The notes: generated by a model not told the origin, from the sequence alone. Positions 11,310 through 63,947 are shown, counted from the first letter of the stretch. The stretch is 64,000 nucleotides of DNA from Candidatus Kuenenia stuttgartensis (GCA_945865325.1 CAMBFA010000004.1:114-64113), one strand, 5' to 3'. Made by a program: numbers and translations.

Positions 11310-11394
11310 GGTGGGGTCGCGGGGGGAAACGGGCGGGGGAGGGAAAGGAGAGAGTCCCGGCGTGGGCGACGGGCACCACGACGGAGGGGATGGA

Positions 11395-25551: not shown

Positions 25552-25805
25552 GACGGGGAATCGGCGAGAGCCGCGCGGAGGGGGTCTCGGGCCGAGGCTG
25601 GGAAAAAGCCCCCTGGCGGGCGCCCGACCGCTTCTTCATGGCCGCGCCGCGGCCAACCACCACCTGGGAATCCCGATTTTTCCCAGGTAAATCGACGATT
25701 TCACGGAATTCGTCGCCCCCTGGTCGCGTGACCTGAAAAGATGGGCAAAGATTAACGGAAGCGGAAAGTCTCCGTTGCCAATCCCCGCACGCGCGCACGG
25801 CCACT

Positions 25806-29143: not shown

Positions 29144-29181
29144 TCGCTTTCCCTCATCCGCGGTCACCGGGCTTCGACGCC

Positions 29182-31846: not shown

Positions 31847-31868
31847 CGATGTCACGATCCCTCATTCA

Positions 31869-44359: not shown

Positions 44360-44405
44360 CACGCATCCTTCCATGCTCGGCGCCGTTGCGTCGGCGCGGT
44401 GGTTG

Positions 44406-45254
44406 TCATTCCAGGGCACCATCCCGCTCGGCTCCCGCATCGTTGCCATGATCGGCCCGGGCCACGACGGCCACATGGACGGCGGCGGCGCCCGCCGTCG
44501 ACAAAGCCCGTCGGCAGGCGGCCAGCGTACCACCGGTGGTGACGACATCGTCGACGAGGAGTACCCGTTTCCCCGTTCCCCCCCCGCGGCCGACGGCAAA
44601 CGCATCGAGGACGTTGGCGCGGCGCGACTCGAACGGCAGCCGGTTCTGCATCACCGTCGCCCGTGTGCGCCGCAGCAACCGCCGGACTGGAATCGCGGCG
44701 AGACGCCCCAGACGCTCGGCCATTACATCGGCGGCACTCGTGCCCCTCTCGACGCGCCGCCACCAGTGCATCGGCACCGGCACGACGATATCGGGCTTCC
44801 AGGCGAGGATGGTTTCGGCATGGTGGCGGTGGAGGAGCGTGGCGAGCGCCGCCGCCACGTTGTCGCCCCGGGGCCTCTTGGCATGGAGCACCGCCTGACG
44901 GAGCGTGCCGCCATAGCCCCCCAGCACGACGATCCCGTCCCAGTCACGACACCGCCCCCGGCACGAACGGCAGCGCTGGCTCCCTCCCAGCTGCCCACAC
45001 CGCAGGCAGCGCAGTCGTGGATCGGAAAGCTCCCCGACACACGCTTCGCAGAGGGGGAGAGGGGGGCGACAAGGGACGGCCGCGCCCGCGGACGTCGCCG
45101 GCGAGCCTGCCGACGTCGCCGGCGCCCCCGCCGACGGCACGAGCAGGTCTTCCCGATGACAAAGCTCGCAGCGGGGGGGGAAAAGCAGGTCAACCGCGGG
45201 CGCGGACCACGCCCGGCCCTGCCGCGCCAGCCACGCCCAACCCCGTGTGATCAC
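44406..45254 (-). CDS. ComF-family phosphoribosyltransferase-domain protein
   Basis: N-terminal double CxxC zinc-finger region (LLFPPRCELC ... CEAC ... CLRCG ... CRSC). C-terminal PRTase motif VLLVDDVVTTGGT. The start is uncertain: GTG 45254 is preferred because it leaves a divergent intergenic region; alternatives are ATG 45326 and 45365. Confidence 0.7.
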   Translation of the reverse strand: MITRGWAWLARQGRAWSAPAVDLLFPPRCELCHREDLLVPSAGAPATSAGSPATSAGAAVPCRPPLPLCEACVGELSDPRLRCLRCGQLGGSQRCRSCRGRCRDWDGIVVLGGYGGTLRQAVLHAKRPRGDNVAAALATLLHRHHAETILAWKPDIVVPVPMHWWRRVERGTSAADVMAERLGRLAAIPVRRLLRRTRATVMQNRLPFESRRANVLDAFAVGRGGGTGKRVLLVDDVVTTGGTLAACRRALSTAGAAAVHVAVVARADHGNDAGAERDGALE

Positions 45255-47316: not shown

Positions 47317-47589
47317 ATGCTCGTGCTCTCCAGACAGCGTGATGAAAGCATCATGATCGGTGACAACATCGTTGTCACGATCGTTGACATTCGGGGAGAC
47401 AAGGTCCGCTTGGGGATCAACGCCCCTTCCGAGATTCCGGTTCACCGGCAGGAGGTCTACGAGGCCATCCAGCGGGAGAATCTCCGGGCCGCCAGGCTCG
47501 AGCCGGGGGATACCGAGGGGCTCGGACGCTTGGCCGACCGCGGCACCGCGCAGGGGCCAAAGAAGCCCAACGACGGCCCACGCCGCTGA
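47317..47589 (+). CDS. csrA: carbon storage regulator CsrA (copy 1, FliW-linked)
   Basis: [55 protein letters not shown] is a near-canonical CsrA core. It is followed by a ~35-aa basic/Gly-Pro tail. Confidence 0.93.
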
Positions 47590-48289: not shown

Positions 48290-49066
48290 TCATCCCCCGC
48301 ATCGGAACAGCCTGCGGGCGTTGGCGGCCGTCGCCGCGGCGAGGACCTCGAGTGACACGCCCCGGGCCAGGGCGAGGCACCGAGCCGTATGGACGACATG
48401 GGCCGGTTCGTTGCGTCGTCCGCGAAGCGGCTCCGGGGAGAGAAACGGACTGTCGGTCTCGACGAGGAGACGGTCGATCGGCACCGTCGCCGCGACCTCG
48501 CGGAGCCCGGCCGAGGAGCGGAAGGTCACCATTCCGGCAAACCCGAGGTAACAGCCGAGCTCAAGGGCCTCGCCCGCCTCTACAGACGTCCCGGTGAAGG
48601 CGTGGAGGATCGCCGTCAACGGGCCGCGGGCGACCGCCTCACGGAGCATCGCGAGGACGTCGGCGAGGCTCTCCCGGGTATGGACGACCAACGGGAGCGA
48701 GAGCCGTTGTGCTAACTGGACATGCCGATCGAACCATTCCCGCTGGATGTCCGGCGGCGCATCGTGACGGTACCAGTCGAGCCCCGTTTCACCGATGGCG
48801 GCGACCCGCCCCGACTCGGCGAGGGTGACGATCCGATCCCACTCCCCGGCAACGACCTCGTTGACGTCGTTGGGGTGAATGCCGGCCGTGGCCACGAGCC
48901 CGGGCTCACGGGAGGCGAGATCCGCCGCGGCCTCGCTGTCCATGGCGCGGGTGCCGATGATCGCCATCCCGGTTACCCCGGCGGCCCTGGCCCGAGCCAC
49001 CACCGCGGGCAGTTCGTCGAGATACCGCATCGGATCGAGATGACAATGGCTGTCGAAGAGCTCCAT
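48290..49066 (-). CDS. tatD: TatD-family metal-dependent hydrolase/DNase
   Basis: Start MELFDSHCHLD at 49066 inside ORF 48290..49126. Contains LPLVVHTRES, AILHAFTG and VETDSPFLSP, the TatD metal-binding motifs. Confidence 0.88.
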   Translation of the reverse strand: MELFDSHCHLDPMRYLDELPAVVARARAAGVTGMAIIGTRAMDSEAAADLASREPGLVATAGIHPNDVNEVVAGEWDRIVTLAESGRVAAIGETGLDWYRHDAPPDIQREWFDRHVQLAQRLSLPLVVHTRESLADVLAMLREAVARGPLTAILHAFTGTSVEAGEALELGCYLGFAGMVTFRSSAGLREVAATVPIDRLLVETDSPFLSPEPLRGRRNEPAHVVHTARCLALARGVSLEVLAAATAANARRLFRCGG

Positions 49067-49122
49067 GCCTTCCCTCCGCGTGGGTGGTGCCGGCTCCCGT
49101 GTACCGTCGGAGAACCGGGGAT

Positions 49123-49566
49123 TCAAGAGACGGGCGCGGGGGAAAGGGAGCCGCTGCGCCCACCGCGCCGGGCGATCTCTTCGAGCTGATCGGCATGTTG
49201 GAGCGACGCCTCGCGGGCCTCGCGCACGAGATCGATCTCCCCTGGGGGCCCTCCCGCGTCGACGAGCCGGTCGAATTGGGCGATCTGACGCCGCAGCCCG
49301 TTGAGCACACGGGGGAGCATCGCGGCGAGGTCGACGTCGTGCGTGGCGGTGTAGCGGATCGGGTAGACAGGCCGCGGTACCGTCTCGCCGTGCTCCTCAA
49401 GGAGCCGGCCAGCCCGGTCGGCGATGCTCCGCTGATCCTCAACGAGATCAACCAGCGCGAGCTTGACCGCTTCGTTCCCGGGAAAAGTCCATACCCCCGC
49501 CGCCACAAAGTAGGAGTGGAGCGACGATCCGAGCGTGTCGATGAGTTCGGCGAGTATCGACTTCAT
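49123..49566 (-). CDS. hypothetical helical protein encoded immediately downstream of nuoN
   Basis: Start MKSILAELIDTLGSSLHSYFVAAG at 49566 inside ORF 49123..49623. 147 aa with a predicted helical-bundle-like composition. It begins 25 nt after the nuoN stop on the same strand. Confidence 0.5.
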   Translation of the reverse strand: MKSILAELIDTLGSSLHSYFVAAGVWTFPGNEAVKLALVDLVEDQRSIADRAGRLLEEHGETVPRPVYPIRYTATHDVDLAAMLPRVLNGLRRQIAQFDRLVDAGGPPGEIDLVREAREASLQHADQLEEIARRGGRSGSLSPAPVS

Positions 49567-49591: not shown

Positions 49592-51247
49592 TCAGGAGGC
49601 AAAAGCCCCGGCGAGACGGGCAAAGGCGTACAGCCCCGACCAGAAGACGCCGAGCGACACGACCGGAACGACCAGCGCTGTCACCAGCGCCCCGGGAATC
49701 GACACGAGCGGAAATGCGTCGGCGGTCCGATCGGCCGGGGGTGGGTCGAACGTCATGACCTTCAGCACGCGGAGGTAGTAAAACAGGCTGATCACCGTGT
49801 TTGCCCCGCCAACCACGAGCAGGACGAGCATCAACGGCCGTTCGGCGCCGAGCATGACCGCCTCCATGACCGAGGAGAAGACGAGGAATTTGGAGACGAA
49901 CCCAGCCAGGGGCGGAAGTCCGATGAGACTCACGAGCACGACGCCGGTGGCGACGACGATCCCCGGGTTCGATCGAATCAATCCGGCGTAGGAGGCGATC
50001 TCCTCGCTCCGCAGCGAATTTCGCAGCAGCGCCACGATGGCGAACGCGGCAAGGTTCATGAAGACATACGTGCCGAGGTAGAAACAGACCGCGGCGACGG
50101 CGGAACGCGTCGCCTCGGCATCCCTTCCGGCCAGCGCCACCGCCGCCGCCACCCCCATCATGAGATAGCCGGCGTGCGCAATGGTCGAATAGGCGAGGAG
50201 GCGCTTCATGTTGGTTTGCCCGTAGGCAGCGAGATTCCCCAGCGTGCAGGTGAGCGCCGCCAGCAGGGCGATCCCCCCGACGATGAAGTGCCTCGTTTCA
50301 CCGAGTGATGCCATCTGGGCGACATGCTCGGGCCCCGGGCCGGTCGTCCCCAGCCCGAAAGCCACACGGAGGAGGAGCGCTACGGCGGCGGCCTTGCTGG
50401 CCACCGAGAGAAACGCCCCGACTTCGGCCGCGGCACCGGCGAAGACGTCCGGGCACCAGAAGTGGAACGGCACGGCCGAGAGCTTGAACGCCAATCCGAC
50501 GCCCACCATCAGCCCGCCGATCGCCAGCGCCAGCCCGGCGCCCCCCGGCATCCACAGTGCATCCAGCGCCGCCAATTGGCGGGCCATGGTCGGTAGGTGG
50601 CAGGTGCCAAGGACACCGGCCAGGAGGCTCAAGCCGTAGAGCATGACCCCCGCCGCGCCGGCCCCGTAGACGGCATACTTGAGGGCCGCCTCAGAACTCG
50701 CCTTCCGCCCTTTAAGGAGCCCGGCGAGGGCATACGAGGGAACGCTCGCCATCTCCACCGCCATAAACACCATGAGGAGATGATTGGCCGACGCCATCAA
50801 ACACATGCCGAGCGTCGCCCCGAGGACGAGGGTGTAGAAATCGGCTCCATCCTCGCGGTCCGGGATCCCGGAAACCTTCGTGAAGAGGATGAAGAGCACG
50901 AGGAATCCGGCCAGGAGCAAACGGATGTAAGCCGTGAGCGAGTCGAAGGCGAGCAGGCCACCGAACAGTTCCTGCCGCCCCGCCAGCAGATCGCCGATGG
51001 ACGACGACCAGGCTGTGGCGCGGAGGGAGAGGATGTCTTCCCAGGCAAAAAACAGCGAGAACAAGACGCCGCCGAGGGCGATGAAACCGGAGTCGACCAG
51101 ACGCAGGAGCGGCACCATCCGGCAGAGCAACAGCAGAACGATGGTCGCCGCCAGACAGAGCTCCGGACGGAAATGGGGCAGCGACACGACGAGGGTGTCG
51201 TGGAGCGTGCCATTGAGCAGAGCGCCGAGATTGCGGTCGGGATTCAC
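49592..51247 (-). CDS. nuoN: NADH-quinone oxidoreductase subunit N
   Basis: GTG at 51247 overlaps the nuoM stop (GTGA). Polytopic antiporter-like protein (FFAWEDILSL ... MVFMAVEMASVPSYALAGL ... KLSAVPFHFWCPDVFAGA). Confidence 0.88.
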   Translation of the reverse strand: MNPDRNLGALLNGTLHDTLVVSLPHFRPELCLAATIVLLLLCRMVPLLRLVDSGFIALGGVLFSLFFAWEDILSLRATAWSSSIGDLLAGRQELFGGLLAFDSLTAYIRLLLAGFLVLFILFTKVSGIPDREDGADFYTLVLGATLGMCLMASANHLLMVFMAVEMASVPSYALAGLLKGRKASSEAALKYAVYGAGAAGVMLYGLSLLAGVLGTCHLPTMARQLAALDALWMPGGAGLALAIGGLMVGVGLAFKLSAVPFHFWCPDVFAGAAAEVGAFLSVASKAAAVALLLRVAFGLGTTGPGPEHVAQMASLGETRHFIVGGIALLAALTCTLGNLAAYGQTNMKRLLAYSTIAHAGYLMMGVAAAVALAGRDAEATRSAVAAVCFYLGTYVFMNLAAFAIVALLRNSLRSEEIASYAGLIRSNPGIVVATGVVLVSLIGLPPLAGFVSKFLVFSSVMEAVMLGAERPLMLVLLVVGGANTVISLFYYLRVLKVMTFDPPPADRTADAFPLVSIPGALVTALVVPVVSLGVFWSGLYAFARLAGAFAS

Positions 51248-53088
51248 CGGCCACCCCCCACGGAGAAGGAATCGATCGCGGCCTGGAACTCGGCCTTCTC
51301 GGAATCGGTGGAAGCGGCCGCCCCGGCCGAGGCGGAAGCACCGTCGTGGCCCCGCGTCCATTCGGCGAGCGTCTCCACCTGCCGGTTCACCGTCGGCGTG
51401 ACGTAGTTGAAGATCAGCTGCGGCGCCACCCCGAACACGACGGCCAGCACGACCAGCGGCACGGCGATCGCCAGTTCCCGGCGGGTCATCGGCGTGAGGT
51501 GGTCACCGTGCGGGCCTTTGTACTCGGCCCCGAGGTAGACACGCTGGATCGCCCAGAGGATGTAGGCAGCGGTGAGGATCACGGTGAAAGCGGAGCAGAC
51601 GGCGAGCAGACGGCTGTAGTTCCAGCTCGAGAGCGTGACGAGCACCTCGCCGATGAAGCCGCACATGCCGGGGAGCCCGAGACCGGCGAAGAAGATCGCC
51701 ACCGCCAGCGACGCATAGAGCGGCATGCGGTTGAAGATGCCGCCGAACTCTTCGAGGTTGCGGTGGTGGACCCGGTCGTAGAGGACGCCGACCATGAAGA
51801 ACATCCCGGCCGAGCTGATCCCATGGGCGAGCATTTGGAACATGGCTCCGTTGACCCCCTGGGCCCAGGCGTCCCACTGGTACCCATGTCCGTCCACCGC
51901 GCTCCACACGCCGAGGCCGAGCATGACATACCCCATGTGGCTCACCGAGCTGTACGCCACCATCCGCTTGAAATCTTTCTGCGCCAGCGCGGCGAAGGCC
52001 CCGTAGACCATCGACACGACGCCGAGCCCGCACACCAACCAAGCGAACGACAACCCCGCGCCGGGGCAGATCGGGTAGCAGATGCGGATGATTCCGTAGC
52101 CGCCAAGCTTGAGAAGGACCCCGGCGAGGATCATCGAGATCGGTGTCGGTGCCTCGACGTGGGCGTCGGGCAACCAAGTGTGCACCGGCACGACCGGGAC
52201 CTTGATGACGAAGCCGATGAGGAGGAGGAGGAAGGCCCACGACTCGAGCGTCATGCCCCAGAACGAAGTCGCGGCAAAGGGAGAGTTTTGCGATTGGCCG
52301 ATCGCCGCCAGCGCCAGGAGGTTGAAGGTGTGGACCGGCTTCCCGGCGTCATGGGCGGAATGAATGGCAGCCAGCGCCGCCGTCCTCTCGGTTCCCTCAA
52401 GGACCGGGCTGACAACATGACTGGCGATGAGCTGCTCGTCTGACAGCGTACCGACGTCGCTGGCGAAGTAGAGCATCAGGATCGCCAGGAGCATCAAGAC
52501 GCTGCCGGCGAGCGTATAGAGGAAGAACTTGATCGCCGCATACTCGCGGCGCGGACCACCCCAGATCCCGATGAGGAAATACATCGGCAGGAGCATGACT
52601 TCCCAGAAAACGTAGAACAGAAAGAAATCGAGCGAGACAAAGACCCCGATCATGCCCGTCTCGAGCAGGAGGAAGAGGATCCAGTAGGGGCGCACGTGCT
52701 TCTCGATCGGCCAGCTCGCCGCGGCGGCGAGAACCGAAAGAAAGGTCGTCAGCAGAACCAGCGGCATGCTGATCCCGTCGACACCCAGCAGATAGTTGAT
52801 GTTGAAGGCAGGGATCCACGGTTGATCGACCACCGCCTGCATTCCGGCTTCACCGACGGTGAACTGCCCAGCGCTGCCCGTTCCGAAGATCGCCGGCACC
52901 GCCATCCAGAGCGAGAGAACGAAGACGGCGATCGTCGTCGCCAAGCCGACCCAGCGGATCGAGTCGTCCTTGCCACGGGGGATCAGCGGCAGCGCCAGGA
53001 TCCCGGCGACGATCGCCGGCAGGAAGAGGATGAGCGTCAGGGGCCAGAAGGCAGGCTGCGTCACGGCCAAGATCGGTGCGATTCCCAT
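51244..53088 (-). CDS. nuoM: NADH-quinone oxidoreductase subunit M
   Basis: 614 aa. LFYVFWEVMLLPMYFLIGIWGG, IKVPVVPVHTWLPDAHVEAPT, MVAYSSVSHMGYVMLG. Confidence 0.92.
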   Translation of the reverse strand: MGIAPILAVTQPAFWPLTLILFLPAIVAGILALPLIPRGKDDSIRWVGLATTIAVFVLSLWMAVPAIFGTGSAGQFTVGEAGMQAVVDQPWIPAFNINYLLGVDGISMPLVLLTTFLSVLAAAASWPIEKHVRPYWILFLLLETGMIGVFVSLDFFLFYVFWEVMLLPMYFLIGIWGGPRREYAAIKFFLYTLAGSVLMLLAILMLYFASDVGTLSDEQLIASHVVSPVLEGTERTAALAAIHSAHDAGKPVHTFNLLALAAIGQSQNSPFAATSFWGMTLESWAFLLLLIGFVIKVPVVPVHTWLPDAHVEAPTPISMILAGVLLKLGGYGIIRICYPICPGAGLSFAWLVCGLGVVSMVYGAFAALAQKDFKRMVAYSSVSHMGYVMLGLGVWSAVDGHGYQWDAWAQGVNGAMFQMLAHGISSAGMFFMVGVLYDRVHHRNLEEFGGIFNRMPLYASLAVAIFFAGLGLPGMCGFIGEVLVTLSSWNYSRLLAVCSAFTVILTAAYILWAIQRVYLGAEYKGPHGDHLTPMTRRELAIAVPLVVLAVVFGVAPQLIFNYVTPTVNRQVETLAEWTRGHDGASASAGAAASTDSEKAEFQAAIDSFSVGGGR

Positions 53089-53145
53089 GGGGCGATGGTC
53101 CGGAGAGGAACGGTGTGCGGTGCGGGAGGAAGGGCCGAGTTGGCA

Positions 53146-55623
53146 TCAGCCGGCAAACGAAGAATGGAGCAGCAATCCGGCAAGAACGAAGATGGCGACG
53201 GTACCGAGGGCGATGAACATCACGTACTGGCGGAGTTGACCGGTCTGCAGTTTCTTGAGCTCGAGTCCGGCGTGCCACGTGGCATTGGCCGTCCCGTTGA
53301 CAAATCCGTCGATGAACGTCCGGTCGAGCCACGCGTCGAAGCCGGCCACCTGTTTGGCTCCCCAGGCGAGTCCCTCGATAAACTTGTCGATGACCCCTGT
53401 GTCGGTCGCGCTCACCAACCGCGACATTCCCAGGACCGGCAGCACGAACAGGAAGCGGTAGATCTCGTCGAAGTACCAGCGATTGGCGAGAAACGTGTAA
53501 AGGGGCTTGGCCGCAGCGGCGACCGCAGCCGGCGAGATGACGCGCCACACATACATCGCCGCGGCGAGGAGCACGCCGCTGGCCGCGGTGGCAAACGCCG
53601 TCAGTGAGGCGGTGACGTGGATGTTGTGGGCGTGGCTGGCATGCTCCGCCGGTACCGTGAATGCCCGGAAGAGGAGACCGCCGAGCTCGGTCCCGCCGGT
53701 GCCAGCGGGGCGGGCCTGATCGATCATGTTGGCGATCCCGAATCCGCCCGGCAGAGTCCATCCGGCCACGACGGCGAGCACCGACAACGCCACGAGCGGG
53801 TAGACCATCACCGGCGGGGACTCGTGGGCATGTTCATGGACGTGATGATCGCGCGGTTGCCCGGCGAACGTCATGAACCAGAGCCGGAACATATAAAAAG
53901 CCGTCAGCATCGCGCCGCCGGCAACGGCATAGAAGAGGATCGAGTGAGACGGATTCTCGCGGGCGAAGAGGAGGGCCTGGGCGAGGATCGAGTCCTTCGA
54001 GTAGTAGCCACTCAAGCCGATGTCGAGAAACGGCACGCCGGCACCGATGATCGCCAAGCAGCCGACGAGCATCGTTCCCGAGGTCCACGGCATCACCTTA
54101 GCCAGCCCCCCCATCTTCCGCATGTCGTTGGTATGGCAGGCGTGGATCACCGATCCGGAACAGAGGAAGAGAAGGCTCTTGAAGAAGGCATGGGTGACGA
54201 GATGGAACAGCCCGGCCAACCATCCCCCGACGCCGAGCGCCAGCATCATGTAGCCGAGCTGACTAACGGTGGAATAGGCGAGCACCCGCTTGATGTCGTT
54301 GGCCACCAGCGCGATCGTGGCGGCGATGAACAGGGTGATGGCCCCGACATAGGCAATGACGAGGAGGGCATCAGGGGTGAGGACCGGATAGAAACGGCCG
54401 ACGAGATAGACGCCCGCGGCCACCATCGTCGCCGAGTGGACGAGCGCCGAGACGGGCGTCGGCCCCTCCATGGCGTCGGGAAGCCAGACGAAGAGTGGAA
54501 ACTGGGCGCTCTTCCCGATGCACCCGCAAAAGATACCGAGCCCGGCCACAAGGAGCAGCCATTTGCCATATCCCTCGCGCCGCCAATCCTCGACCTTGGC
54601 CTCCACCTGCTCGACCCCGGCCCGCGGATCATCAGCATGCGAGCGGAGCACCTCTGCGACCTTCTCCGCCGCGGCGAACTTCACCATCCCGTCGGGCACC
54701 AACTGGGCATGCCGCGCCACCGGCGGACGGACCAGCGAGAACAACCCCGGACGGGCATGGCCGTCGAGCCCGGTCGAGTCGGCGAAGTGGAGCGTCCCGA
54801 GCGCCCCCCATAGCGCCATCAGGCCGATGAGCATCCCGAAGTCGCCGATCCGGTTGACGATGAACGCCTTATTCGCAGCGTTCGAGGCACTCTTCCGCTC
54901 GTAGTAGAAGCCGATCAGGAACCACGAGCAGATGCCGACCAATTCCCAGAAGATGAACACCATCGCCAGATTCCCGGCGATGACGATCCCGAGCATCGAG
55001 AAGCAAAACAGCGACAAGGCTTGGAAGAAACGGTGGAAGCGGCCGGGGCGATGGAGGTGCGACCCGTCGGCGAGGTGGACCTCGTGGTCGGTGATGTCGT
55101 GAAGCTCGTCATGCATGTAGCCCGACGCATAGACATGGATGCAGGTGGCGATGAACGTGATCATCACGAACATCAGCACGGTCAGCGCGTCGACATACCA
55201 CCCGATCGTGAGCCGCAGCCGCCCCCCCTCGTAAAGCGTGTACCAATCGCCCGAGTACGACACCGGTTGGCCCGCATGGCCGGCCCCCTCATCGACCGTC
55301 CGATGAGCCGATTCGGAGCCCTGCGAATCATGTGAACTGGCGGAATCGTGCGAAGCGGGGGATCCATGCGCCCCATCAGCCGACGCATGGGCCCCGCCAT
55401 GGTCGTCGTGGGCCACCGCGTGGACCGGATGCTGGGCCACCCAAGAAATGAACGCCAGGAGCGAAAGAACGAACGAGCCAACGATCGCGGCGGTGGCGAC
55501 GCCGGCCGCCCCCTTGCCATGGTCCCCGAGTCGGGGGCCGGCAAAAAGGATCACGGCAAAAGACACCAAGGGCAGCAGCCAGGCGAGCCCGAGGAGCGTC
55601 GGCAGGAGTGATTCCAGATCCAT
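53146..55623 (-). CDS. nuoL: NADH-quinone oxidoreductase subunit L (enlarged, with His/Asp/Ser-rich insertion)
   Basis: 825 aa. MVFIFWELVGICSWFLIGFYY, GKSAQFPLFVWLPDAMEGPTPVSALVHSATMVAAGVY, AYSTVSQLGYMMLALG. Insertion HDDHGGAHASADGAHGSPASHDSASSHDSQGSESAH after the second TM helix. Confidence 0.92.
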   Translation of the reverse strand: MDLESLLPTLLGLAWLLPLVSFAVILFAGPRLGDHGKGAAGVATAAIVGSFVLSLLAFISWVAQHPVHAVAHDDHGGAHASADGAHGSPASHDSASSHDSQGSESAHRTVDEGAGHAGQPVSYSGDWYTLYEGGRLRLTIGWYVDALTVLMFVMITFIATCIHVYASGYMHDELHDITDHEVHLADGSHLHRPGRFHRFFQALSLFCFSMLGIVIAGNLAMVFIFWELVGICSWFLIGFYYERKSASNAANKAFIVNRIGDFGMLIGLMALWGALGTLHFADSTGLDGHARPGLFSLVRPPVARHAQLVPDGMVKFAAAEKVAEVLRSHADDPRAGVEQVEAKVEDWRREGYGKWLLLVAGLGIFCGCIGKSAQFPLFVWLPDAMEGPTPVSALVHSATMVAAGVYLVGRFYPVLTPDALLVIAYVGAITLFIAATIALVANDIKRVLAYSTVSQLGYMMLALGVGGWLAGLFHLVTHAFFKSLLFLCSGSVIHACHTNDMRKMGGLAKVMPWTSGTMLVGCLAIIGAGVPFLDIGLSGYYSKDSILAQALLFARENPSHSILFYAVAGGAMLTAFYMFRLWFMTFAGQPRDHHVHEHAHESPPVMVYPLVALSVLAVVAGWTLPGGFGIANMIDQARPAGTGGTELGGLLFRAFTVPAEHASHAHNIHVTASLTAFATAASGVLLAAAMYVWRVISPAAVAAAAKPLYTFLANRWYFDEIYRFLFVLPVLGMSRLVSATDTGVIDKFIEGLAWGAKQVAGFDAWLDRTFIDGFVNGTANATWHAGLELKKLQTGQLRQYVMFIALGTVAIFVLAGLLLHSSFAG

Positions 55624-55642
55624 GGGAGTTCGGGAGCGGAGC

Positions 55643-56062
55643 TCACCCCTTCAGGTCGTCGGCCCGGTCGACATCGACGGTGGCGTGATTGTTGTAGAAG
55701 TTGAGTGTGATCGCGAGCGCGACGGCAGCCTCGGCCGCAGCCAAGAGAATCACGAACAGCGCGACCACCTGACCATCGAGCCCGAGCGTCGGGGCCCCTT
55801 CGGCACGGAGGTAAGGAGAGGCGAAGGCGACAAAGTTGATGTTGGCGCCATTCAGGACCAATTCGATCCCCATGAGGATCCCCAGCGCGTTGCGCTTGAG
55901 AGTCATGCAGGCGATGCCGGCGGTGAACAACACCGCCCCGACAAAGAGGTAATGGACAACGCCGACCGGTTCGGTAAACGGATTGACGGCAAACAGCGGA
56001 ACCGTCGCGAGGCATGTGGCCAACGACGCCACCATCGCCGGAGCCAGGACCAGGCCCATCAT
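55643..56062 (-). CDS. nuoK: NADH-quinone oxidoreductase subunit K with an extra N-terminal hydrophobic segment
   Basis: 139 aa. Core HYLFVGAVLFTAGIACMTLKRNALGILMGIELVLNGANINFVAF ... AAAEAAVALAITL. About 35 additional N-terminal residues (MMGLVLAPAMVASLATCLATVPLF). The ATG overlaps the nuoJ stop. Confidence 0.88.
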   Translation of the reverse strand: MMGLVLAPAMVASLATCLATVPLFAVNPFTEPVGVVHYLFVGAVLFTAGIACMTLKRNALGILMGIELVLNGANINFVAFASPYLRAEGAPTLGLDGQVVALFVILLAAAEAAVALAITLNFYNNHATVDVDRADDLKG

Positions 56063-56856
56063 CGTCCTCCTCCCACGAGCGCCGACCTTGCACCCCCCGC
56101 ACTCCGCCCCGTCGGCGCCGCCGTTGCCGCCGCCGCGACAGGCTCCACCGGCATCGCCGATGCGAGGGCATCGATCGGCCGGGGCGTCCTGCGCCGCTTC
56201 GCGCGGGCCAGATAGGCGGCACCGACCAACACAACAAGCAGATGCACCGACACGATCTCGAATGGCAACATGTAACCGACACGACCACCGACCGGCGTTC
56301 CGGCGGGAGGTTCATCGACGCGGACGCCGACCAACGCCATGCCGAGGGGCGTCGCCGAAGGAGCAGGCACGACGCCGACCCCCGGCCCCCTCCAGGCGCC
56401 GACCGAGAAGGCGGCCGTGAGGAGGAGCGAAAGGAGGGAGGCCCCGGCCACGGCCGTGAGCGTTCGATCGGAGGAGGAAGGCTTGATCGACACCAGCGGG
56501 GCCTGGGCGGTGAGCATGACGCCGAAGACAAGCAGCACGAGCGTGCCACCGACGTAGATCATCAGTTGCATCGCACCGATAAATTCGGCGCCAGCGAGGA
56601 AGAACAAGCCGGCGGTGGCACCGAGCGAGAAGACGAGATAGAGGGCCATGCGGACGACGTTGTCGGCCGCCACGACCCCAATGGCAAACCCGCAGGCCAG
56701 CCCGGCGAAAAGGAGGAACAGGACCGAATGCCAATTGATCCCGGCGATCGGCAGAGCGGGCAGCGCAGCCAGGGTCGTGGCGAGGGGTGGTACGACGTGC
56801 GTCAGGGTGGAGATATCCATGAAATCGATGAAATCCATGTCGAACATTCCCGTCAC
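56059..56856 (-). CDS. nuoJ: NADH-quinone oxidoreductase subunit J
   Basis: VRMALYLVFSLGATAGLFFLAGAEFIGAMQLMIYVGGTLVLLVFGVML is the NuoJ signature. GTG 56856 overlaps the nuoH stop; the alternative ATG is at 56847. Long Ala/Pro/Arg-rich C-terminal tail. Confidence 0.85.
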   Translation of the reverse strand: MTGMFDMDFIDFMDISTLTHVVPPLATTLAALPALPIAGINWHSVLFLLFAGLACGFAIGVVAADNVVRMALYLVFSLGATAGLFFLAGAEFIGAMQLMIYVGGTLVLLVFGVMLTAQAPLVSIKPSSSDRTLTAVAGASLLSLLLTAAFSVGAWRGPGVGVVPAPSATPLGMALVGVRVDEPPAGTPVGGRVGYMLPFEIVSVHLLVVLVGAAYLARAKRRRTPRPIDALASAMPVEPVAAAATAAPTGRSAGGARSALVGGGR

Positions 56857-58097
56857 CGAGGGCTCCGCGTTGCCAGACCGGCCCGTTCGACCGGCTCACC
56901 GCCCGTCAGGGTGGACGAACGATCCTCCGCTGGGGAAGCGGCGGCCGGTAGCCCACCTGGCCCCTCAAGCCAGCCCTCCCGGATCTCCCCGGCGGGTCGC
57001 CCCCATCCGGGAAACAGCCCCCCGGGGAGGAACAGTTGCCAGAACATCGCGCCGGCGAACATCACGGCCGCGATCGGCGTGCAGTACTTCAGGCAGGTCG
57101 TCATCACTTGATCGATCCGCAACCGGGGGAGCGTCCAGCGGATCCACATCATGAACAGCACACCGAGCGTCGCCTTACCCATGAAGTTCGCCAGCCCCAT
57201 GAGCCGGACGACGTAGGCCGCACTCTCCCCCGTGCCATCGCTGAAGCCGAGCAACTGGGCCACTGGCACCGGGCCGTTCCAGCCACCGAGGAAGAGCACC
57301 GCAGCCAGACCGCTGACAAGGAACATCGAGCCGTACTCGGCCATGAAGAAGAAGCTCCAGCGGAGCCCCGAGTATTCGGTGTGGAATCCTGCCACCAGCT
57401 CACTCTCTGCCTCGGCGAGATCGAAGGGGGCGCGGTTCACGCTCGCCACGGCGCAGGTCACATAGACCGAGAAAATGATGAACGTGAACGGGTCGTGAAA
57501 GAGATACCAGCTCGACATCCAGCCGGCCTGTTTCTCGCCGATCGTGACCAGATCCATGGAGCCGGCGAGCATCACCGGGACGACGACGCACATCCCCAGC
57601 GGCACCTCGTAGCTCACCACTTGAGCCGCTTCGCGCATCGCCCCAAACAACGACCATTTCGAGGCCGAGGCGTAGCCGGCGAGGATCACGCCGAACACCT
57701 CTAGGCCGAGCACGGCGACGACGAAAAAGACGCCCACATTGAGCCGTTGACCGACGACGTCAAAGGCAAAGGGCAGAGCGATGAACGCGCAGAACGACGC
57801 GCAGAAGCTCACATAAGGGGCGAGCCGGAAAAGGAGTCCGTCGGCGCCCTCGGGCATCAGGTCCTCCTTGGCGAGGAGTTTGATGCCGTCGGCGAGCGAC
57901 TGGAGCCAACCGAAACGCCCGCCGGTGCGGGTCGGGCCGAGGCGATCCTGGATCCGGGCGGCGATCTTCCGCTCCGCCCAGATGAACACGAGCGCACCAC
58001 CGGCGATGACGTTCAAGAGCAGGACCGCGGCCACGAGGGCAGCGATGCTCCAAGCCACCCAACCGGGTAGCCCCAGACCGATCAGGAATTCAACCAT
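56853..58097 (-). CDS. nuoH: NADH-quinone oxidoreductase subunit H
   Basis: 414 aa. WAERKIAARIQDRLGPTRTGG, GWLQSLADGIKLLAKED, APFDLAEAESELVAGFHTEYSG, RWTLPRLRIDQ. About 60-aa C-terminal extension. Confidence 0.92.
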   Translation of the reverse strand: MVEFLIGLGLPGWVAWSIAALVAAVLLLNVIAGGALVFIWAERKIAARIQDRLGPTRTGGRFGWLQSLADGIKLLAKEDLMPEGADGLLFRLAPYVSFCASFCAFIALPFAFDVVGQRLNVGVFFVVAVLGLEVFGVILAGYASASKWSLFGAMREAAQVVSYEVPLGMCVVVPVMLAGSMDLVTIGEKQAGWMSSWYLFHDPFTFIIFSVYVTCAVASVNRAPFDLAEAESELVAGFHTEYSGLRWSFFFMAEYGSMFLVSGLAAVLFLGGWNGPVPVAQLLGFSDGTGESAAYVVRLMGLANFMGKATLGVLFMMWIRWTLPRLRIDQVMTTCLKYCTPIAAVMFAGAMFWQLFLPGGLFPGWGRPAGEIREGWLEGPGGLPAAASPAEDRSSTLTGGEPVERAGLATRSPR

Positions 58098-58119
58098 GCA
58101 CCACCCATTTCACACCCTG

Positions 58120-58148
58120 GGTAAAAACCGGCGGACCAGGTTTTTACC
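58120..58148. other. perfect 10-bp inverted repeat (GGTAAAAACC-N9-GGTTTTTACC) in the A+T-richer nuoD-nuoH spacer
   Basis: Read directly. It lies inside the 179-nt non-coding spacer 58098-58276, where canonical operons carry nuoEFG. Function is unknown (RNA hairpin or protein-binding palindrome). Confidence 0.6.
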
Positions 58149-58276
58149 GTCGAAAAACCGACATCCTGAAAAATTTCCACGAAGTTTGACCTACACCGCG
58201 GCGAATCACAAGGGCCAACGGGAAAACCGCCGCGGAGCCGTTCCGCGCCCTGCGCCAGGGCTCGAACCACCGGGGG

Positions 58277-59485
58277 TCAGCGATCGATCTCACCCATCAC
58301 GATGTCGAGGCTGCCGACGATCGCTGGAACATCGGCGATCAAGCAGCCGCGGCACAGCTCGTGCGTCACCGAGAGGTTTGAGAACGAGCTCGACCGGGCC
58401 CGGACCCGCCACGGGATCGAGGTGCCGTTGCCGACGACATAGAACCCCATCTGTCCTTTTGGCGCCTCGGTCTCGAGGTAGGCATCGCCGACAGGAAGTT
58501 TCTCGAAGAGCTTGAGCGGTTCGGGGAGCGGCTCCGGGCAGGCGGCGTAGCGGTCGATCGCTTGACGGACCAGGTCCATCGACTGCACGACCTCGAGCAT
58601 GCGGACGAAGAACCGGTGCCAGCAGTCGCCGAGCACGGCTTCCGACGGCACCGTCGGGTAGCTGTGGTCGCGGGGATAACGCCCTTCCTTTTGCACCGCC
58701 ACTTCGAAGGCGTAGCCGTCGTACATCCCGGTGTAGAGGCTCTCGCCGTCCCGGCGCAGGTCCTGGTCGACACCGCTGCCGCGGAGCACCGGCCCACTGC
58801 AGCCGTAGTCGATCGCCATCGCGCGGGAGAGCACCCCGATGCCGGCGGTTCGCTTGACGAAGATCGCGTTGGTCGTGAGGAGGGCGTGGTACTCCTTGAT
58901 GATCGGCTCGAACTGGTCGAGGAACGCCTCACAGCGCTGCAGCCAGCCGGGAGGGAGATCGGCGGTCGCCCCGCCGACAGTGATGTAGCTGTAGGTGAGC
59001 CGCGCGCCGCAGGCCTCTTCGAACAGGTCGAGGATCCTCTCGCGCTCACGGAACGCATAGAGAAACGGGCTGAAAGTCCCTAGGTCGAGGCCGTAGGCCC
59101 CCATCCCGACGAGATGGCTGGAGATCCGGTTCAACTCGGCAATCAGCACCCGGAGGTGACGGGCCTTCTCCCCGACCTCATGGCGCATCAGTTTCTCGAC
59201 CGTCAGGGCCCAGCCGAGATTCATGTTCATCGCCGCCAGGTAGTCGAGCCTGTCGGTGTAGGGGATCCACTGGCGGGGGGTAAGATTCTCGCCGATCTTC
59301 TCGGCACAGCGGTGGAGATACCCGATGTGGGGCTCGGTCTCCGAGACGATTTCACCGTCGGTCCGCAGCACCAACCGCAGCACGCCATGCGTGCTCGGGT
59401 GCTGCGGACCCATGTTGACGAGCATCTCGTCGGTACGGACGTCGAACTCGATGATCCGCGGATCGTCTTCGATGAGGTCTGGCAT
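58277..59485 (-). CDS. nuoD: NADH-quinone oxidoreductase subunit D
   Basis: 402 aa. MLVNMGPQHPSTHGVLRLVL, HIGYLHRCAEKIGE, C-terminal ADVPAIVGSLDIVMGEIDR. Confidence 0.94.
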   Translation of the reverse strand: MPDLIEDDPRIIEFDVRTDEMLVNMGPQHPSTHGVLRLVLRTDGEIVSETEPHIGYLHRCAEKIGENLTPRQWIPYTDRLDYLAAMNMNLGWALTVEKLMRHEVGEKARHLRVLIAELNRISSHLVGMGAYGLDLGTFSPFLYAFRERERILDLFEEACGARLTYSYITVGGATADLPPGWLQRCEAFLDQFEPIIKEYHALLTTNAIFVKRTAGIGVLSRAMAIDYGCSGPVLRGSGVDQDLRRDGESLYTGMYDGYAFEVAVQKEGRYPRDHSYPTVPSEAVLGDCWHRFFVRMLEVVQSMDLVRQAIDRYAACPEPLPEPLKLFEKLPVGDAYLETEAPKGQMGFYVVGNGTSIPWRVRARSSSFSNLSVTHELCRGCLIADVPAIVGSLDIVMGEIDR

Positions 59486-59566
59486 GGCGGTTCACTCCGG
59501 AGGGGAGACGGGAGCGGAGGGCGTGGGAGGGATGAAGGATCGAACGTGACCCGACCGTGACGGGCT

Positions 59567-60103
59567 TCAACGACAGCGGATGCCGTGGTATTCCGTCGGC
59601 ATCTCGTAATCCTTGCGGAGGGGGTAGCCGACCCAATCTTCGGGACAGAGGATCCGGCGGAGATCGGGATGACCGGAGAAGGACACGCCGGAGAGATCGT
59701 AGACCTCCCGCTCGTGCCAGTCGGCGGTGCGCCACACGCCGGCGACACTCGGAATCTCCGGGAGGTGGCCAGCGACGTCACCGCTCCAGCGCGGAAGCTT
59801 GACCTTGAGCACGAGAGTAGCGCGGGCCGGCGTGCTCCAGAGGTGGTAAACCATCTCCAAGTGCGGTTGCCAAGAAACCTTGGCCGCCTTCTTGGGATCG
59901 GTCTCGAGCCAATCGACCGCCGTGATGCATTGCAGCGAGTCGAAGCGCGGCTCCCCCCTCGATTTCAACCACTGGCAGACCTCCGCGATCCGCGCCGGAG
60001 CGATCTCGATCCACGGATCGAGTGCCTCGAGTTGGCTCCCCACCACGGCTCCGGGGCAGGCAGCCTCGATCGATTCAAGAAAACCAGGACCTTTCATCGC
60101 CAC
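59567..60103 (-). CDS. nuoC: NADH-quinone oxidoreductase subunit C
   Basis: 178 aa. SLQCITAVDW, SVAGVWRTADWHEREVYDLSGVSFSGHPDLRRIL, PLRKDY. Confidence 0.9.
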   Translation of the reverse strand: MAMKGPGFLESIEAACPGAVVGSQLEALDPWIEIAPARIAEVCQWLKSRGEPRFDSLQCITAVDWLETDPKKAAKVSWQPHLEMVYHLWSTPARATLVLKVKLPRWSGDVAGHLPEIPSVAGVWRTADWHEREVYDLSGVSFSGHPDLRRILCPEDWVGYPLRKDYEMPTEYHGIRCR

Positions 60104-60157
60104 GACTCCTGTGGTTCACGCCACGGCCTCGATCCACGCCCGATCCCCCGCCGACCA

Positions 60158-60808
60158 TCAGCGCCCGGACGCGGCCCCGCGCTCGTTCGACGTCGCCCGC
60201 ACCCAATCGAGGTCACCGCGATTCCAGACGTACGCGAAACCGACCAGCAGCACTGCGAAAAATGTCACCATGTCGGCAACCGCCAGACGGGCGAGCAATC
60301 CTCCCGCCCGGGTGACGTCCTGCCGGGCCGAAGCCAGCCCCACGGCCGCTGGCGGTGCCACCGCCACGGCCGAGGGATCGACCTCCACCCCGCCAGGAAT
60401 GGCGATCCGGGAGAAATCGGGCAAGACCGGGCGATCGATCCCCAGTTCCCGTAGCAGGCCGGCGGCGGCGGGCGTCAACGACACGCCGTCAGCCTGCACC
60501 GTCTGGAGGGCCGGATCGGACAGTTGCGTTGCCTTGCCGAAGACCGTTGCCCAGGGAAAGAAGAGTGCAACCTCAACGTCGAAGATGATGAACAGCAACG
60601 CCACGACGTAGAACCGGAGGTCGAACTGGACAAAGCTCGAACCGATCGCCGGTTCGCCACACTCGTAGACCTCGAGTTTCTCGGCGTTGGGGAGGCGGGG
60701 GCGCACGAGCCACCCCACGAACAGGTTGACCGCGAGGAAGGCCCCGCCGATCACCACAAAGAGCGCCACGAAACCGGCCAGGATCGTCGGATCGAGAAAC
60801 GAGGGCAT
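60158..60808 (-). CDS. nuoA: NADH-quinone oxidoreductase subunit A with a ~70-aa insertion before the last TM helix
   Basis: 216 aa. KLEVYECGEPAIGSSFVQFDLRFYVVALLFIIFDVEVALFFPWA is the NuoA core, and the last helix is MVTFFAVLLVGFAYVWNRGDLDW. Between them lies an Ala/Pro/Gly-rich segment (KATQLSDPALQTVQADG...DVTRAGGLLARLAV). It contains no NuoB-type Cys motifs. Confidence 0.85.
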   Translation of the reverse strand: MPSFLDPTILAGFVALFVVIGGAFLAVNLFVGWLVRPRLPNAEKLEVYECGEPAIGSSFVQFDLRFYVVALLFIIFDVEVALFFPWATVFGKATQLSDPALQTVQADGVSLTPAAAGLLRELGIDRPVLPDFSRIAIPGGVEVDPSAVAVAPPAAVGLASARQDVTRAGGLLARLAVADMVTFFAVLLVGFAYVWNRGDLDWVRATSNERGAASGR

Positions 60809-61014
60809 GGGAGTGACTCGCGGCGGAGATTCGACAGGGAGCGCGATCGGAGAGGAGCTGAACGAGGAGGTGGAAATCGACCTGAACCAGGAGACCGAGC
60901 TTCGAGGAGGACTGCCATCGGCCGCCTCGAATCAGCCGCCGGAATCTCCTAGCGACTCGGAGCGGGCCGACCACGCACCTCCACCATCTCCGATCACGGC
61001 CGATGGAAGCGTTT

Positions 61015-61542
61015 CTATTGGTTGGGGCCACCGTGGACCGGATCAACGATCACCTTCGAGGCAGCGACGGCCGTCGGATTGAGGGTCGACCTGCCCCAGG
61101 CAGTGTCGACTGGGAGACGGGCGAAGTCGACGATCGTTCCGTCGCGGCTGTAGCAGCTCAGGTCGAGCGTTGATCCCATGAAAATGCAGTCGACGGGGCA
61201 CGGCTCGACGCACAGGGCACAGAACATGCACTTCGAGTAATCGATCGTGAAGCCGCTGATCTGGAAGCCCTTGCCGCCGGTGACGCGTTCCTTGCCGATG
61301 TAGATGCAGTCGACGGGGCACGCCTTAGCGCACTGGTCGCAGGCGATGCAGGTCGTCAGGTCATAGCGGTGGAATCCCCGGTAACGGGCCGCCACCGGAG
61401 CCGGGAGTTCCGGATATTCGAAGTGTTCGGTGAACGTCCGCCGTTTCTGGTCGTAGGTGCTGCCGAACACCCGGAGCGTGACGAGCAGGCCCTGCATCAC
61501 CGTGGCGACGGCGGTGTAGACGTTGCGAAACCACTCGGTCAT
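61015..61542 (-). CDS. nuoI: NADH-quinone oxidoreductase subunit I (2x[4Fe-4S] ferredoxin-type), encoded first in the cluster
   Basis: Start MTEWFRNVYTAVATVMQGLLVTLRVF at 61542 inside ORF 61015..61758. Motifs YRGFHRYDLTTCIACDQCAKACPVDCI and DYSKCMFCALCVEPCPVDCI. Confidence 0.85.
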   Translation of the reverse strand: MTEWFRNVYTAVATVMQGLLVTLRVFGSTYDQKRRTFTEHFEYPELPAPVAARYRGFHRYDLTTCIACDQCAKACPVDCIYIGKERVTGGKGFQISGFTIDYSKCMFCALCVEPCPVDCIFMGSTLDLSCYSRDGTIVDFARLPVDTAWGRSTLNPTAVAASKVIVDPVHGGPNQ

Positions 61543-61581
61543 GGAAAACCCAGCGCTGGGGGGACGGCGGCAATCCGCCAG

Positions 61582-61629
61582 GGAACAGGACTGCGGAACA
61601 GGACTGCAAGACTGGACTTCGGAACAGGG
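61582..61629. repeat. 13-bp tandem repeat GGAACAGGACTGC (2 perfect copies, 1 degenerate, 1 partial)
   Basis: Read directly: GGAACAGGACTGC GGAACAGGACTGC AAGACTGGACTTC GGAACAGGG. It lies 40-90 nt upstream of the nuoI start codon and on the opposite-strand side of csrA2. Confidence 0.9.
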
Positions 61630-62017
61630 CGTCGAACGCACCGGCCAGAGACGGGGTGTGGCGGTGGGGAGCGTCCCGACCCCGGTCTGGTCTCCGTCAA
61701 TCCACGGTCGATACGAAGTATAGGAGGAGAGGGAATCCCCACAAGCCGCGACCGGCATCCCCCGCGCATGCCCCCGGCAAAGCTCCCCGGTCCGCCTCCG
61801 TCAGGCCGGAGCGGTACTGCAGCCGATGCCTCAGGGATCGGGGGGCTGACTGGCAGCGGAGAGCCTGTCCCTCCGATCGGGCTGCGAGCGGAGGGCCCGG
61901 GGCTCACGGCGACCGCGACGAGCCAAACTGTCCAGTTGCCGTTCCTCCCCCAGCGGCCGTTTGGGAGGGCAAACCGGAGCGAAAAGACCAAAAGAGCCCA
62001 AAAGAGCATTGCGCAGC

Positions 62018-62157: not shown

Positions 62158-62445
62158 ATGCTTGTCCTGTCGCGGAAGAAGGACGAGAGCATCGTCATCA
62201 ACAACGACATCACGATTGTGGTGGTGGAAATCCGTGGGGACAAGGTCCGTCTCGGGGTGGAAGCCCCCAAGGAAGTGCCGGTCCATCGGAGAGAGGTTTT
62301 CGACGCCATCGCCCGAGGTGAAGACGCGCTCGCCGACGCCGATTCGTCTTCCCCTGCCCTTTCTTCCCCTGTCATCGGGGTCGCGGATTCGTCGGCCGCC
62401 GCGGCTGGCCCCCTCGACGACCTACGATCCGAACCACTCTCCTGA
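62158..62445 (+). CDS. csrA: carbon storage regulator CsrA (copy 2, no adjacent fliW)
   Basis: Only the last 95 codons of ORF 61369..62445 are gene-like: [55 protein letters not shown] plus an acidic/Ser-Ala tail. AAGGA lies 7 nt upstream of the ATG. Confidence 0.9.
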   Translation: MLVLSRKKDESIVINNDITIVVVEIRGDKVRLGVEAPKEVPVHRREVFDAIARGEDALADADSSSPALSSPVIGVADSSAAAAGPLDDLRSEPLS

Positions 62446-62595: not shown

Positions 62596-62668
62596 GGCCC
62601 CATCGTCTAGAGGCCTAGGACACGGGCCTTTCAAGCCTGCGACCGGGGTTCGAATCCCCGTGGGGTCA
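62596..62668 (+). tRNA. tRNA-Glu (anticodon UUC)
   Basis: GGCCCCATCGTCTAGAGGCCTAGGACAC-GGGCCTTTCAAGCCTG-CGAC-CGGGGTTCGAATCCCCG-TGGGGTC-A. It is collinear with E. coli tRNA-Glu (D-loop TCTAGAGGCC, anticodon loop CTTTCAA). Confidence 0.9.
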
Positions 62669-62873
62669 TTTGTGCGGCGCGGGCGGAAACCGCAACAACG
62701 CGGAGCTTCGGCGGCCGGGGCATTGCCAATGCCTCTTGGCGGCCGTGCCCCTCGCCAACCGCCATGGCCGGCGAGTCCTCGGTCGGCCGCCGGCGATTGG
62801 AGTGTCACTTCCCCCTTTGCCCCGCGGACTTTTCGGAGACTCAGGCCACGACCAGCGTTGTGAGCCCCCCCCC

Positions 62874-63947
62874 ATGGCAGGTAACTACGACGCGGTGCTC
62901 CTCGTCTCGTTCGGCGGCCCAGATGGCCCCGACGATGTGATGCCGTTCCTGGAAAACGTGCTCCGCGGCCGCAACGTTCCGAGGGAGCGAATGCTCGAAG
63001 TGGCGGAGCACTACCACCACTTCGGCGGCCGGAGCCCGATCAACGCCCAGAACCTGGCCCTTTTGGAGGCCCTCCGGAAGGAACTCGCGGACCACGGCCC
63101 CGATCTCCCGGTTTACTGGGGCAACCGGAACTGGCACCCGCTTCTGAGCGACACGCTCCGCGAGATGGCCGATGCGGGCATCCGGCGCGTGGCGGCATTT
63201 GTCACCAGCGCGTACAGCAGTTATTCAGGCTGCCGTCAGTACCGCGAGAACCTTCAGGCTGCCTGTGCCCCGTTGGGAGACCGGGCCCCCCGGGTCGACA
63301 AGCTCCGCGTGTTCTTCAATCACCCGGGATTTATCGGCCCGATGGCGGACAACCTCGTCCGCAGTCTGTCGGCCTTTCCCGCCGACCAGCGGCAGAGGAC
63401 GCCCGTGCTGTTCACGGCCCACAGCATCCCGGTCTCGATGGCTGATTCCTGCCGGTATGTCGCCCAACTGCGGGAATCGTGTCGGCTGGTGGCAACCGAG
63501 GCCGGCGTGAGCGATTGGGAGCTCGTCTACCAGAGCCGTAGTGGCGCTCCCGGCCAGCCGTGGCTCGAACCCGACGTCTGCGACCGGATTCGTGCCCTCC
63601 ACGCCGCCGGCGGGGATCGGGTGGTGGTGGCGCCGATCGGATTCATCTCGGACCACATGGAGGTCCTCTACGACCTCGACACGGAGGCGGCTGACCTCTG
63701 CCGGAGCCTCGGGATGCGGTTCGAACGGGTGGCGACCGTCGGCACGGCGCGTCCCTTCGTGTCGATGATCCGCGATCTGGTCGCGGAACGGCACGGCGAG
63801 TCGGCCGAGCGTCTGGCCATCGGAGGCATGCCGGCCAGCCACGACGTCTGTCCTCTCGATTGCTGCCCAGCTCCCCAACGCCCGAGCCTGGCGGCGGGCG
63901 GTCCTCCGGGGAGGCCCGGCGTGTCTCCCCCGGGATCGGCTCGATGA
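62874..63947 (+). CDS. hemH: ferrochelatase
   Basis: Start MAGNYDAVLLVSFGGPDGPDDVMPFLENV at 62874 inside ORF 62670..63947. Contains FTAHSIP and PIGFISDHMEVLYDLD. C-terminal CPLDCC cluster. Confidence 0.88.
   Translation: MAGNYDAVLLVSFGGPDGPDDVMPFLENVLRGRNVPRERMLEVAEHYHHFGGRSPINAQNLALLEALRKELADHGPDLPVYWGNRNWHPLLSDTLREMADAGIRRVAAFVTSAYSSYSGCRQYRENLQAACAPLGDRAPRVDKLRVFFNHPGFIGPMADNLVRSLSAFPADQRQRTPVLFTAHSIPVSMADSCRYVAQLRESCRLVATEAGVSDWELVYQSRSGAPGQPWLEPDVCDRIRALHAAGGDRVVVAPIGFISDHMEVLYDLDTEAADLCRSLGMRFERVATVGTARPFVSMIRDLVAERHGESAERLAIGGMPASHDVCPLDCCPAPQRPSLAAGGPPGRPGVSPPGSAR

Follow-up and report, generated by a model that had tools for sequence, protein, structure and literature searches.

A complex I-like operon without nuoEFG and with its nuoB gene relocated to a suf operon in Planctomycetota

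We analysed a complex I-like (nuo) operon in a stretch of 64,000 nucleotides (nt) from Candidatus Kuenenia stuttgartensis (GCA_945865325.1 CAMBFA010000004.1:114-64113), hereafter called the window, with positions counted from its first letter. The operon occupies 49592-61758 on the minus strand, has the order nuoI-A-C-D-H-J-K-L-M-N and lacks nuoB, nuoE, nuoF and nuoG. Judged from sequence, it very probably belongs to a complex I-like enzyme of 11 subunits without NuoEFG, whose nuoB gene has been relocated to a suf operon on another contig, in a genome that carries a separate canonical nuo set as well. The evidence comes from gene content, the position of nuoB, conservation in relatives, co-occurrence across genomes, and congruent phylogenies of NuoB and NuoD.

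All ten open reading frames (ORFs) are intact, and their assignment with Pfam bore out the gene order that a first-pass annotation had read from the sequence. The first gene, nuoI (61015-61542), encodes 175 amino acids from a probable ATG start at 61542, with the ORF open to 61758; it matches Fer4 families, and its translation has two CxxCxxCxxxCP motifs for two [4Fe-4S] clusters. A spacer of 206 nt (60809-61014) separates it from nuoA; in relatives, which keep nuoI ahead of nuoA, the corresponding spacer measures 4-2285 nt. The match of nuoA (60158-60808; 216 amino acids) to PF00507 falls in two stretches, with an insertion of ~80-90 residues ahead of the last transmembrane helix, and NCBIfam NuoA models cover residues 14-92 only. 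Beyond a 54-nt gap (60104-60157), which is the site of nuoB in other bacteria, lie nuoC (59567-60103; PF00329, E value 2e-40) and nuoD (58277-59485; 402 amino acids). The PF00346 match of NuoD is also in two parts because of an insertion of ~21 residues relative to NdhH/Nqo4 (about 269-289; …GRYPRDHSYPTVPSEAVLGDC…), which is common to all window-type NuoDs of the order. A spacer of 179 nt (58098-58276), a conserved break point of the operon, is followed by nuoH (56853-58097; PF00146, E value 6e-105; above the cut-off of the NuoH model NF004741), nuoJ (56059-56856; PF00499), nuoK (55643-56062; PF00420), nuoL (53146-55623; 825 amino acids; PF00361, PF00662 and PF06455), nuoM (51244-53088; PF00361 and PF01059) and nuoN (49592-51247; PF00361; probable GTG start at 51247, ORF open to 51361). 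Overlaps of 4 nt join nuoH to nuoJ (GTGA), nuoJ to nuoK (ATGA) and nuoM to nuoN (GTGA), and the first of these leaves no nuoI remnant between nuoH and nuoJ. Searches of the D-H and I-A spacers turned up no Rfam family and no promoter or terminator of consensus type. All seven membrane subunits (A, H, J, K, L, M and N; PF00507, PF00146, PF00499, PF00420 and three PF00361 proteins) and the Q-module subunits C, D and I are encoded in this operon.

The first-pass annotation had judged the nuoA-nuoC gap too small for nuoB, and this holds beyond the window: across 70 related loci the gap measures -1 to 257 nt, never leaving room for the gene. It was also right that the 179-nt spacer after nuoD stands in place of nuoE, nuoF and nuoG, as tblastn searches with NuoB, NuoE, NuoF and NuoG against the window returned only noise (E > 0.2). 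Together with a six-frame search for PF01058, these searches rule out hidden or frameshifted copies of the four genes in the window and leave no remnant of nuoB in the operon interval. Among solved structures, the closest relative of the window NuoD is cyanobacterial NdhH (6hum_H, E value 8.5e-91), by a small margin over Paracoccus and Thermus NuoD. Its E values against NuoD/NdhH proteins run from 1e-80 to 1e-91 and against Mbh/FHL large subunits only from 1e-28 to 1e-44, and by this similarity we class it as a NuoD-type protein, not a group-4 [NiFe] hydrogenase or Ehr large subunit. Its GPQHPSTHG and DRLDY motifs contain what we take to be the quinone-site His and Tyr, H38 and Y87 of Nqo4. 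The translations of NuoL, NuoM and NuoN contain FWE..., LLKLGGYG, KR.VAYSS, GF.GE and YSKD, which presumably hold the charged Glu and Lys residues of these subunits.

The assembly is a fragmented metagenome-assembled genome (MAG) of 4.4 Mb in 298 contigs, 89% complete, in which the window contig is C4. We found two genome-wide matches to PF01058 (NuoB), on contigs C79 and C15, and zero on the window contig. The match on C79 is a lone, intact nuoB of about 200 amino acids with all four Cys ligands of cluster N2 (GLACC...GAC...GCPP), and it matches mitochondrial PSST with an E value of 1e-59 and Thermus Nqo6 with 7e-56. It sits in the order sufR-like gene, nuoB, sufC, sufB, sufD and a Rieske/SufT fusion, 172-175 nt past the sufR-like helix-turn-helix gene and 14 nt before sufC. 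The match on C15 belongs to a complete canonical nuoA-B-C-D-E-F-G-H-I-J-K-L-M-N cluster (about 18276-35332), whose proteins share 35-41% identity with the window set and which is the NADH-oxidising complex I of the organism. The first-pass annotation had offered two explanations for the missing gene, a nuoB at another place in the genome or the presence of several paralogous nuo sets of which this is one, and both turned out to be correct. The three contigs C4, C15 and C79 match in GC content and tetranucleotide usage (r >= 0.993). Apart from the two nuo clusters, contig C136 carries another NuoF-like (PF01512) gene at 10992-11495 (minus strand).

The arrangement is widely conserved. Relatives of the window NuoD occur at more than 580 loci; the best 80 are 82-99% identical to it, and nearly all of these carry a Pirellulales or Planctomycetota label. 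About 30 long Pirellulales loci show the same layout throughout, with hemH divergent from nuoI-A-C-D-H-J-K-L-M-N and tatD at the end, in part with a gene for a 147-amino-acid protein between nuoN and tatD. The D-H spacer spans 91-2370 nt in 56 relatives, and in a few genomes the operon is physically split after nuoD. All eight closed chromosomes that we fetched carry both the unit of sufR-like gene, nuoB, sufC, sufB, sufD and Rieske/SufT gene and the nuoB-less nuo operon, 0.5-3.4 Mb apart. Canonical gene order in relatives would have pointed to an assembly problem; these relatives, closed chromosomes included, share the non-canonical order. Across Planctomycetota, which the first-pass annotation had proposed to compare, the same nuoB-less order is found in Pirellulales and an I-A-B-C-D order in Phycisphaerae and Gemmatales. 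Separately, the unclassified bacterium isolate SMAG_U9794 (locus L167, 101-8802) has sufC-sufB-sufD-Rieske and, ~1.9 kb later, nuoB-nuoD-nuoI-nuoC, which may be an independent nuo/suf neighbourhood.

We scored the co-occurrence of window-type NuoD and suf-linked-type NuoB in 151 genomes of the order. Both proteins were present in 122 genomes and both absent from 11; window-type NuoD occurred without suf-linked-type NuoB in 10 and the reverse in 8 (Fisher p about 1e-6). The genomes with two or fewer contigs were all concordant (10/10). Twelve genomes (G011, G074, G145, G026 and others), four of them closed, hold solely window-type NuoD together with solely suf-linked-type NuoB, and the suf-linked NuoB is absent from the five genomes that have the canonical set only. 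Of the 13 other genomes whose nuo set is solely of the window type, 10, four closed ones included, lack a NuoF-type flavoprotein (PF01512) altogether, and the first-pass annotation was right to leave the electron-input module unassigned.

The gene orders of other lineages form a series. Loci found with the lone NuoB have the order A-B-C-D-H-I-J-K-L in Acidobacteriota, Ignavibacteriota, Chlorobiota and Bacteroidota; Phycisphaerae and Gemmatales have I-A-B-C-D-H-J-K-L; and in Pirellulales, Thermoguttaceae and Planctomycetales (Fuerstiella and others) nuoB lies beside suf. In the NuoB tree, the suf-linked NuoBs are nested among the in-operon NuoBs of planctomycetes (SH-aLRT 89-94). In the NuoD tree, which the first-pass annotation had suggested for classifying the complex, the window NuoD is sister to the NuoD of Phycisphaerae I-A-B-C-D operons (starred support of 95), within a clade of enzymes that lack NuoEFG (98, also starred). 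The clade that holds the window NuoD and NuoB comprises enzymes of Bacteroidota, Chlorobiota and Ignavibacteriota; the canonical NuoB and NuoD of the same genome group with 14-subunit types such as that of Scalindua, far from the window NuoD. The NuoB and NuoD phylogenies are congruent. On co-occurrence and phylogeny together, we assign the C79 NuoB to the window set. The simplest reading would be two successive gene moves in one enzyme lineage: nuoI would have shifted to the front of nuoA in Planctomycetota, and later, in the Pirellulales/Planctomycetales lineage, nuoB would have left its place between nuoA and nuoC for the head of the operon of sufR-like gene, sufCBD and Rieske/SufT gene.

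Several observations weigh against this interpretation. The NuoI models of NCBIfam rank best for the window NuoI, yet it scores under their curated cut-off. With 165 columns the NuoB tree is short, and support on its key branches stays under the starred value of 95. Discordance was seen in 18 of the 151 genomes, for the most part fragmented MAGs; a few of the 18 are rated >95% complete (G039, G141 and G144). Finally, NqrA and a POR_N-type 2-oxoacid:ferredoxin oxidoreductase were not found in the window genome, at an assembly completeness of 89%.

These points have to be set beside other explanations of the same genes. One is that the suf-linked NuoB serves the SUF machinery as an iron-sulfur (Fe-S) carrier or scaffold, while the window operon uses the canonical NuoB or none. 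Its gene does lie tightly inside the suf operon, on the same strand as sufC and 14 nt from it here (-4 to 216 nt in 21 loci), and the protein has a lineage-specific C-terminal tail. We nevertheless hold this to be highly improbable, because its core is as similar to PSST and Nqo6 as that of any bacterial NuoB (E value 1e-59, all N2 ligands), it is orthologous to the NuoB still encoded between nuoA and nuoC in sister lineages, and it is the sole NuoB in genomes with only the window operon and absent where that operon is absent. Very unlikely, too, is an NADH dehydrogenase formed by the window complex with the NuoEFG of C15 or with another NuoF-like protein such as that on C136. This genome could supply either partner, but the absence of PF01512 proteins from 10 of the 13 other window-type-only genomes, four closed ones among them, indicates that the enzyme family works without NuoF, and both NuoD and NuoB fall in the clade lacking NuoEFG.

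The window operon could also be a decaying or non-functional paralogue, or an artefact of assembly or binning, as might occur in a fragmented MAG of 298 contigs at 89% completeness. Either is barely credible: the ten ORFs are intact and retain their overlapping start and stop codons, NuoD is 82-99% identical in the best 80 of more than 580 related loci, closed chromosomes have identical order and content, and the translations show what are presumably the charged residues of the antiporter-like subunits. The closed genomes, together with the matching composition of the contigs, rule out an error of assembly or binning.

We therefore favour the 11-subunit enzyme with a relocated nuoB. In such an enzyme, the NuoB encoded in the suf operon would be the eleventh subunit and would join NuoC, NuoD and NuoI on a membrane arm of NuoA, H, J, K, L, M and N. 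Electrons would pass from the donor through the clusters of NuoI to N2 on NuoB, and on to quinone at the site formed by NuoB, NuoD and NuoH, with proton pumping coupled to this transfer. We favour as donor a small redox protein that would dock on NuoI, either reduced ferredoxin or a different one. Reduced ferredoxin itself, docking at NuoI by analogy with cyanobacterial NDH-1, is a tentative choice; the window genome shows nothing that would obviously generate it, which makes the donor a guess. NqrA and 2-oxoacid:ferredoxin oxidoreductase-type genes were present in all eight other Pirellulales genomes examined (window-type-only or canonical-only). The presence of NqrA and absence of NuoF in window-type-only genomes suggest that NADH is probably handled there by Na+-NQR, and that the window-type complex takes electrons from a donor other than NADH. 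The window genome has a canonical complex I in place of NQR.

The link between nuoB and suf may extend to regulation. The best family match of the sufR-like gene is TIGR02702 (SufR_cyano), far under the cut-off (43.7 vs 178.8 bits), and its product is a helix-turn-helix protein with a C-x12-C...C...CC tail. Ahead of the gene lies a sigma-70-like promoter (TTGTCA-16-TAGAAT). In 12 of 20 loci, the sufR-like gene is preceded at a distance of 50-134 nt by a conserved imperfect palindrome, TTTTSRMM-N8-TTGYCW; in the C79 locus (L006) the palindrome is found at 7921-7965 on the minus strand, where it shares sequence with the promoter-like site's -35 box. We propose this palindrome as a candidate operator. 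No other occurrence was found in the about 0.5 Mb scanned, a measure of specificity that is partly circular because the pattern was derived post hoc from the same sequences. The gap between the sufR-like gene and nuoB contains no shared palindrome or other shared element, conservation being confined to the region upstream of the sufR-like gene. From this layout we infer an autoregulated sufR-nuoB-sufCBD unit, in which nuoB and the suf genes would be co-transcribed from the promoter of the sufR-like gene. The gene directly after the C15 nuo cluster encodes an Fe-S carrier ATPase of ApbC/Mrp (NUBPL/Ind1) type that has a FeS_assembly_P domain at its N terminus; with nuoB in the suf operon, both complex I sets of this genome are genetically tied to Fe-S delivery.

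The C-terminal tail of the suf-linked NuoB is 40-75 residues long and reads ELP(V/I)PHHSG(Y/F)V and then, in most Pirellulales, ...FDHQK(I/V)T (6348-6500, minus strand, in the C79 locus; likewise in loci L089-L099, L162 and L169-L176). A related LPVPxRTG tail is carried by the in-operon NuoBs of Gemmatales, which places the origin of the tail before the move to suf; Phycisphaerae NuoBs have no tail. A stronger proposal, which we consider unlikely, is that the gene for the N2 subunit acts as a gatekeeper behind the SufR-like regulator, or that the tailed NuoB has a second role with the SUF machinery. If true, this would be a regulatory coupling not described before, linking the assembly of a respiratory complex to Fe-S biogenesis and fixed in two orders of Planctomycetia; in the gatekeeper version, the enzyme would be built only in step with the capacity for Fe-S assembly.

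Downstream of nuoN, the operon probably continues into two further genes on the minus strand. One encodes the conserved 147-amino-acid protein (49123-49566), which follows nuoN in about 20 Pirellulales loci. This protein has no match in Pfam or NCBIfam, and it is predicted to form a four-helix bundle with a ferritin-like fold (AlphaFold pLDDT 93); the top Foldseek matches are Rv2844 and Dps/ferritin-like proteins (TM-score ~0.7, E value 3.5e-3). H76, D77 and H124 are nearly invariant and hint at a metal site. We considered this protein as an electron-input subunit, for which there is no support, as the fold search yields only a generic ferritin-like four-helix bundle. The other gene encodes a TatD-family hydrolase (48290-49126; PF01026, E value 4e-76), overlaps the preceding ORF by 4 nt and forms the conserved end of the cluster. 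Upstream of nuoI lies a divergent csrA (62159-62445, plus strand; MLVLSRKKDESIVINN...), as the first-pass annotation had reported, and it is found at the same site in several relatives. Past it come a tRNA gene (62596-62668) and hemH (62670-63947, plus strand), whose location upstream of nuoI is conserved across Pirellulales. Another haem biosynthesis gene, hemC (43403-44605, minus strand), lies at the other flank of the region. A second csrA (47317-47589, plus strand) is found beyond an AhpC/TSA-like gene downstream of tatD, and the two csrA genes bracket the nuo cluster.

Complex I-like enzymes of 11 subunits without NuoEFG, encoded by nuoABCDHIJKLMN, were catalogued by Moparthi & Hagerhall 2011 (PMC3144371), and one has been studied in Desulfitobacterium hafniense (PMC11238625); the literature still treats their electron donor as unknown (PMC11238625). 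The main text of two survey papers on these enzymes does not mention Planctomycetes. The set described here has the same inventory (A, B, C, D, H, I, J, K, L, M and N, without E, F and G), and its NuoD and NuoB fall in a clade with forms from Bacteroidota, Chlorobiota, Ignavibacteriota and Acidobacteriota. Unlike the usual contiguous operon, it has nuoI first, nuoB in the suf operon, a frequent break after nuoD, and an appended ferritin-like 147-amino-acid gene with tatD, and it carries lineage-specific insertions or tails in NuoA, NuoL and NuoB. It departs from the known 11-subunit enzymes in gene organisation, not in subunit inventory, and is no new kind of enzyme.

With the ferredoxin-dependent NDH-1 of cyanobacteria and chloroplasts (NdhA-K), the window set shares the absence of NuoEFG and, in NdhH, the best solved match of its NuoD. 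The ndh genes of cyanobacteria and chloroplasts are likewise scattered over several loci. Accessory genes of the NdhS/O/V/L/M/N type were not seen here, although no search was aimed at them. Because our trees held no cyanobacterial sequences, we claim no closer kinship to cyanobacterial NDH-1. The canonical 14-subunit enzyme, such as Nqo1-14 of Thermus thermophilus or the C15 set of this genome, has a homologous core; the window set differs from it in lacking the NADH module, in its 35-41% identity to the C15 proteins, and in its separate position in the trees. We found no published description of the planctomycete arrangement, a weak negative, as subscription journals were mostly outside the coverage of the search.

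For genome annotation, our findings mean that callers which need a contiguous nuo operon, or which count genes per locus, will score complex I of Pirellulales and Planctomycetales as incomplete. The series of gene orders, from A-B-C-D-H-I... through I-A-B-C-D-H... to I-A-C-D-H... with sufR-nuoB-sufCBD, offers a datable marker of rare genomic change within Planctomycetota. The lineage includes culturable aerobes in which a complex I without NuoEFG stands beside Na+-NQR or a canonical complex I, and such coexistence makes them a convenient system for the donor question of the 11-subunit enzymes (PMC11238625). The apparent anomaly of a nuo operon without nuoB is thus solved, and it leaves an evolutionary marker and a possible regulatory link between Fe-S assembly and respiration.

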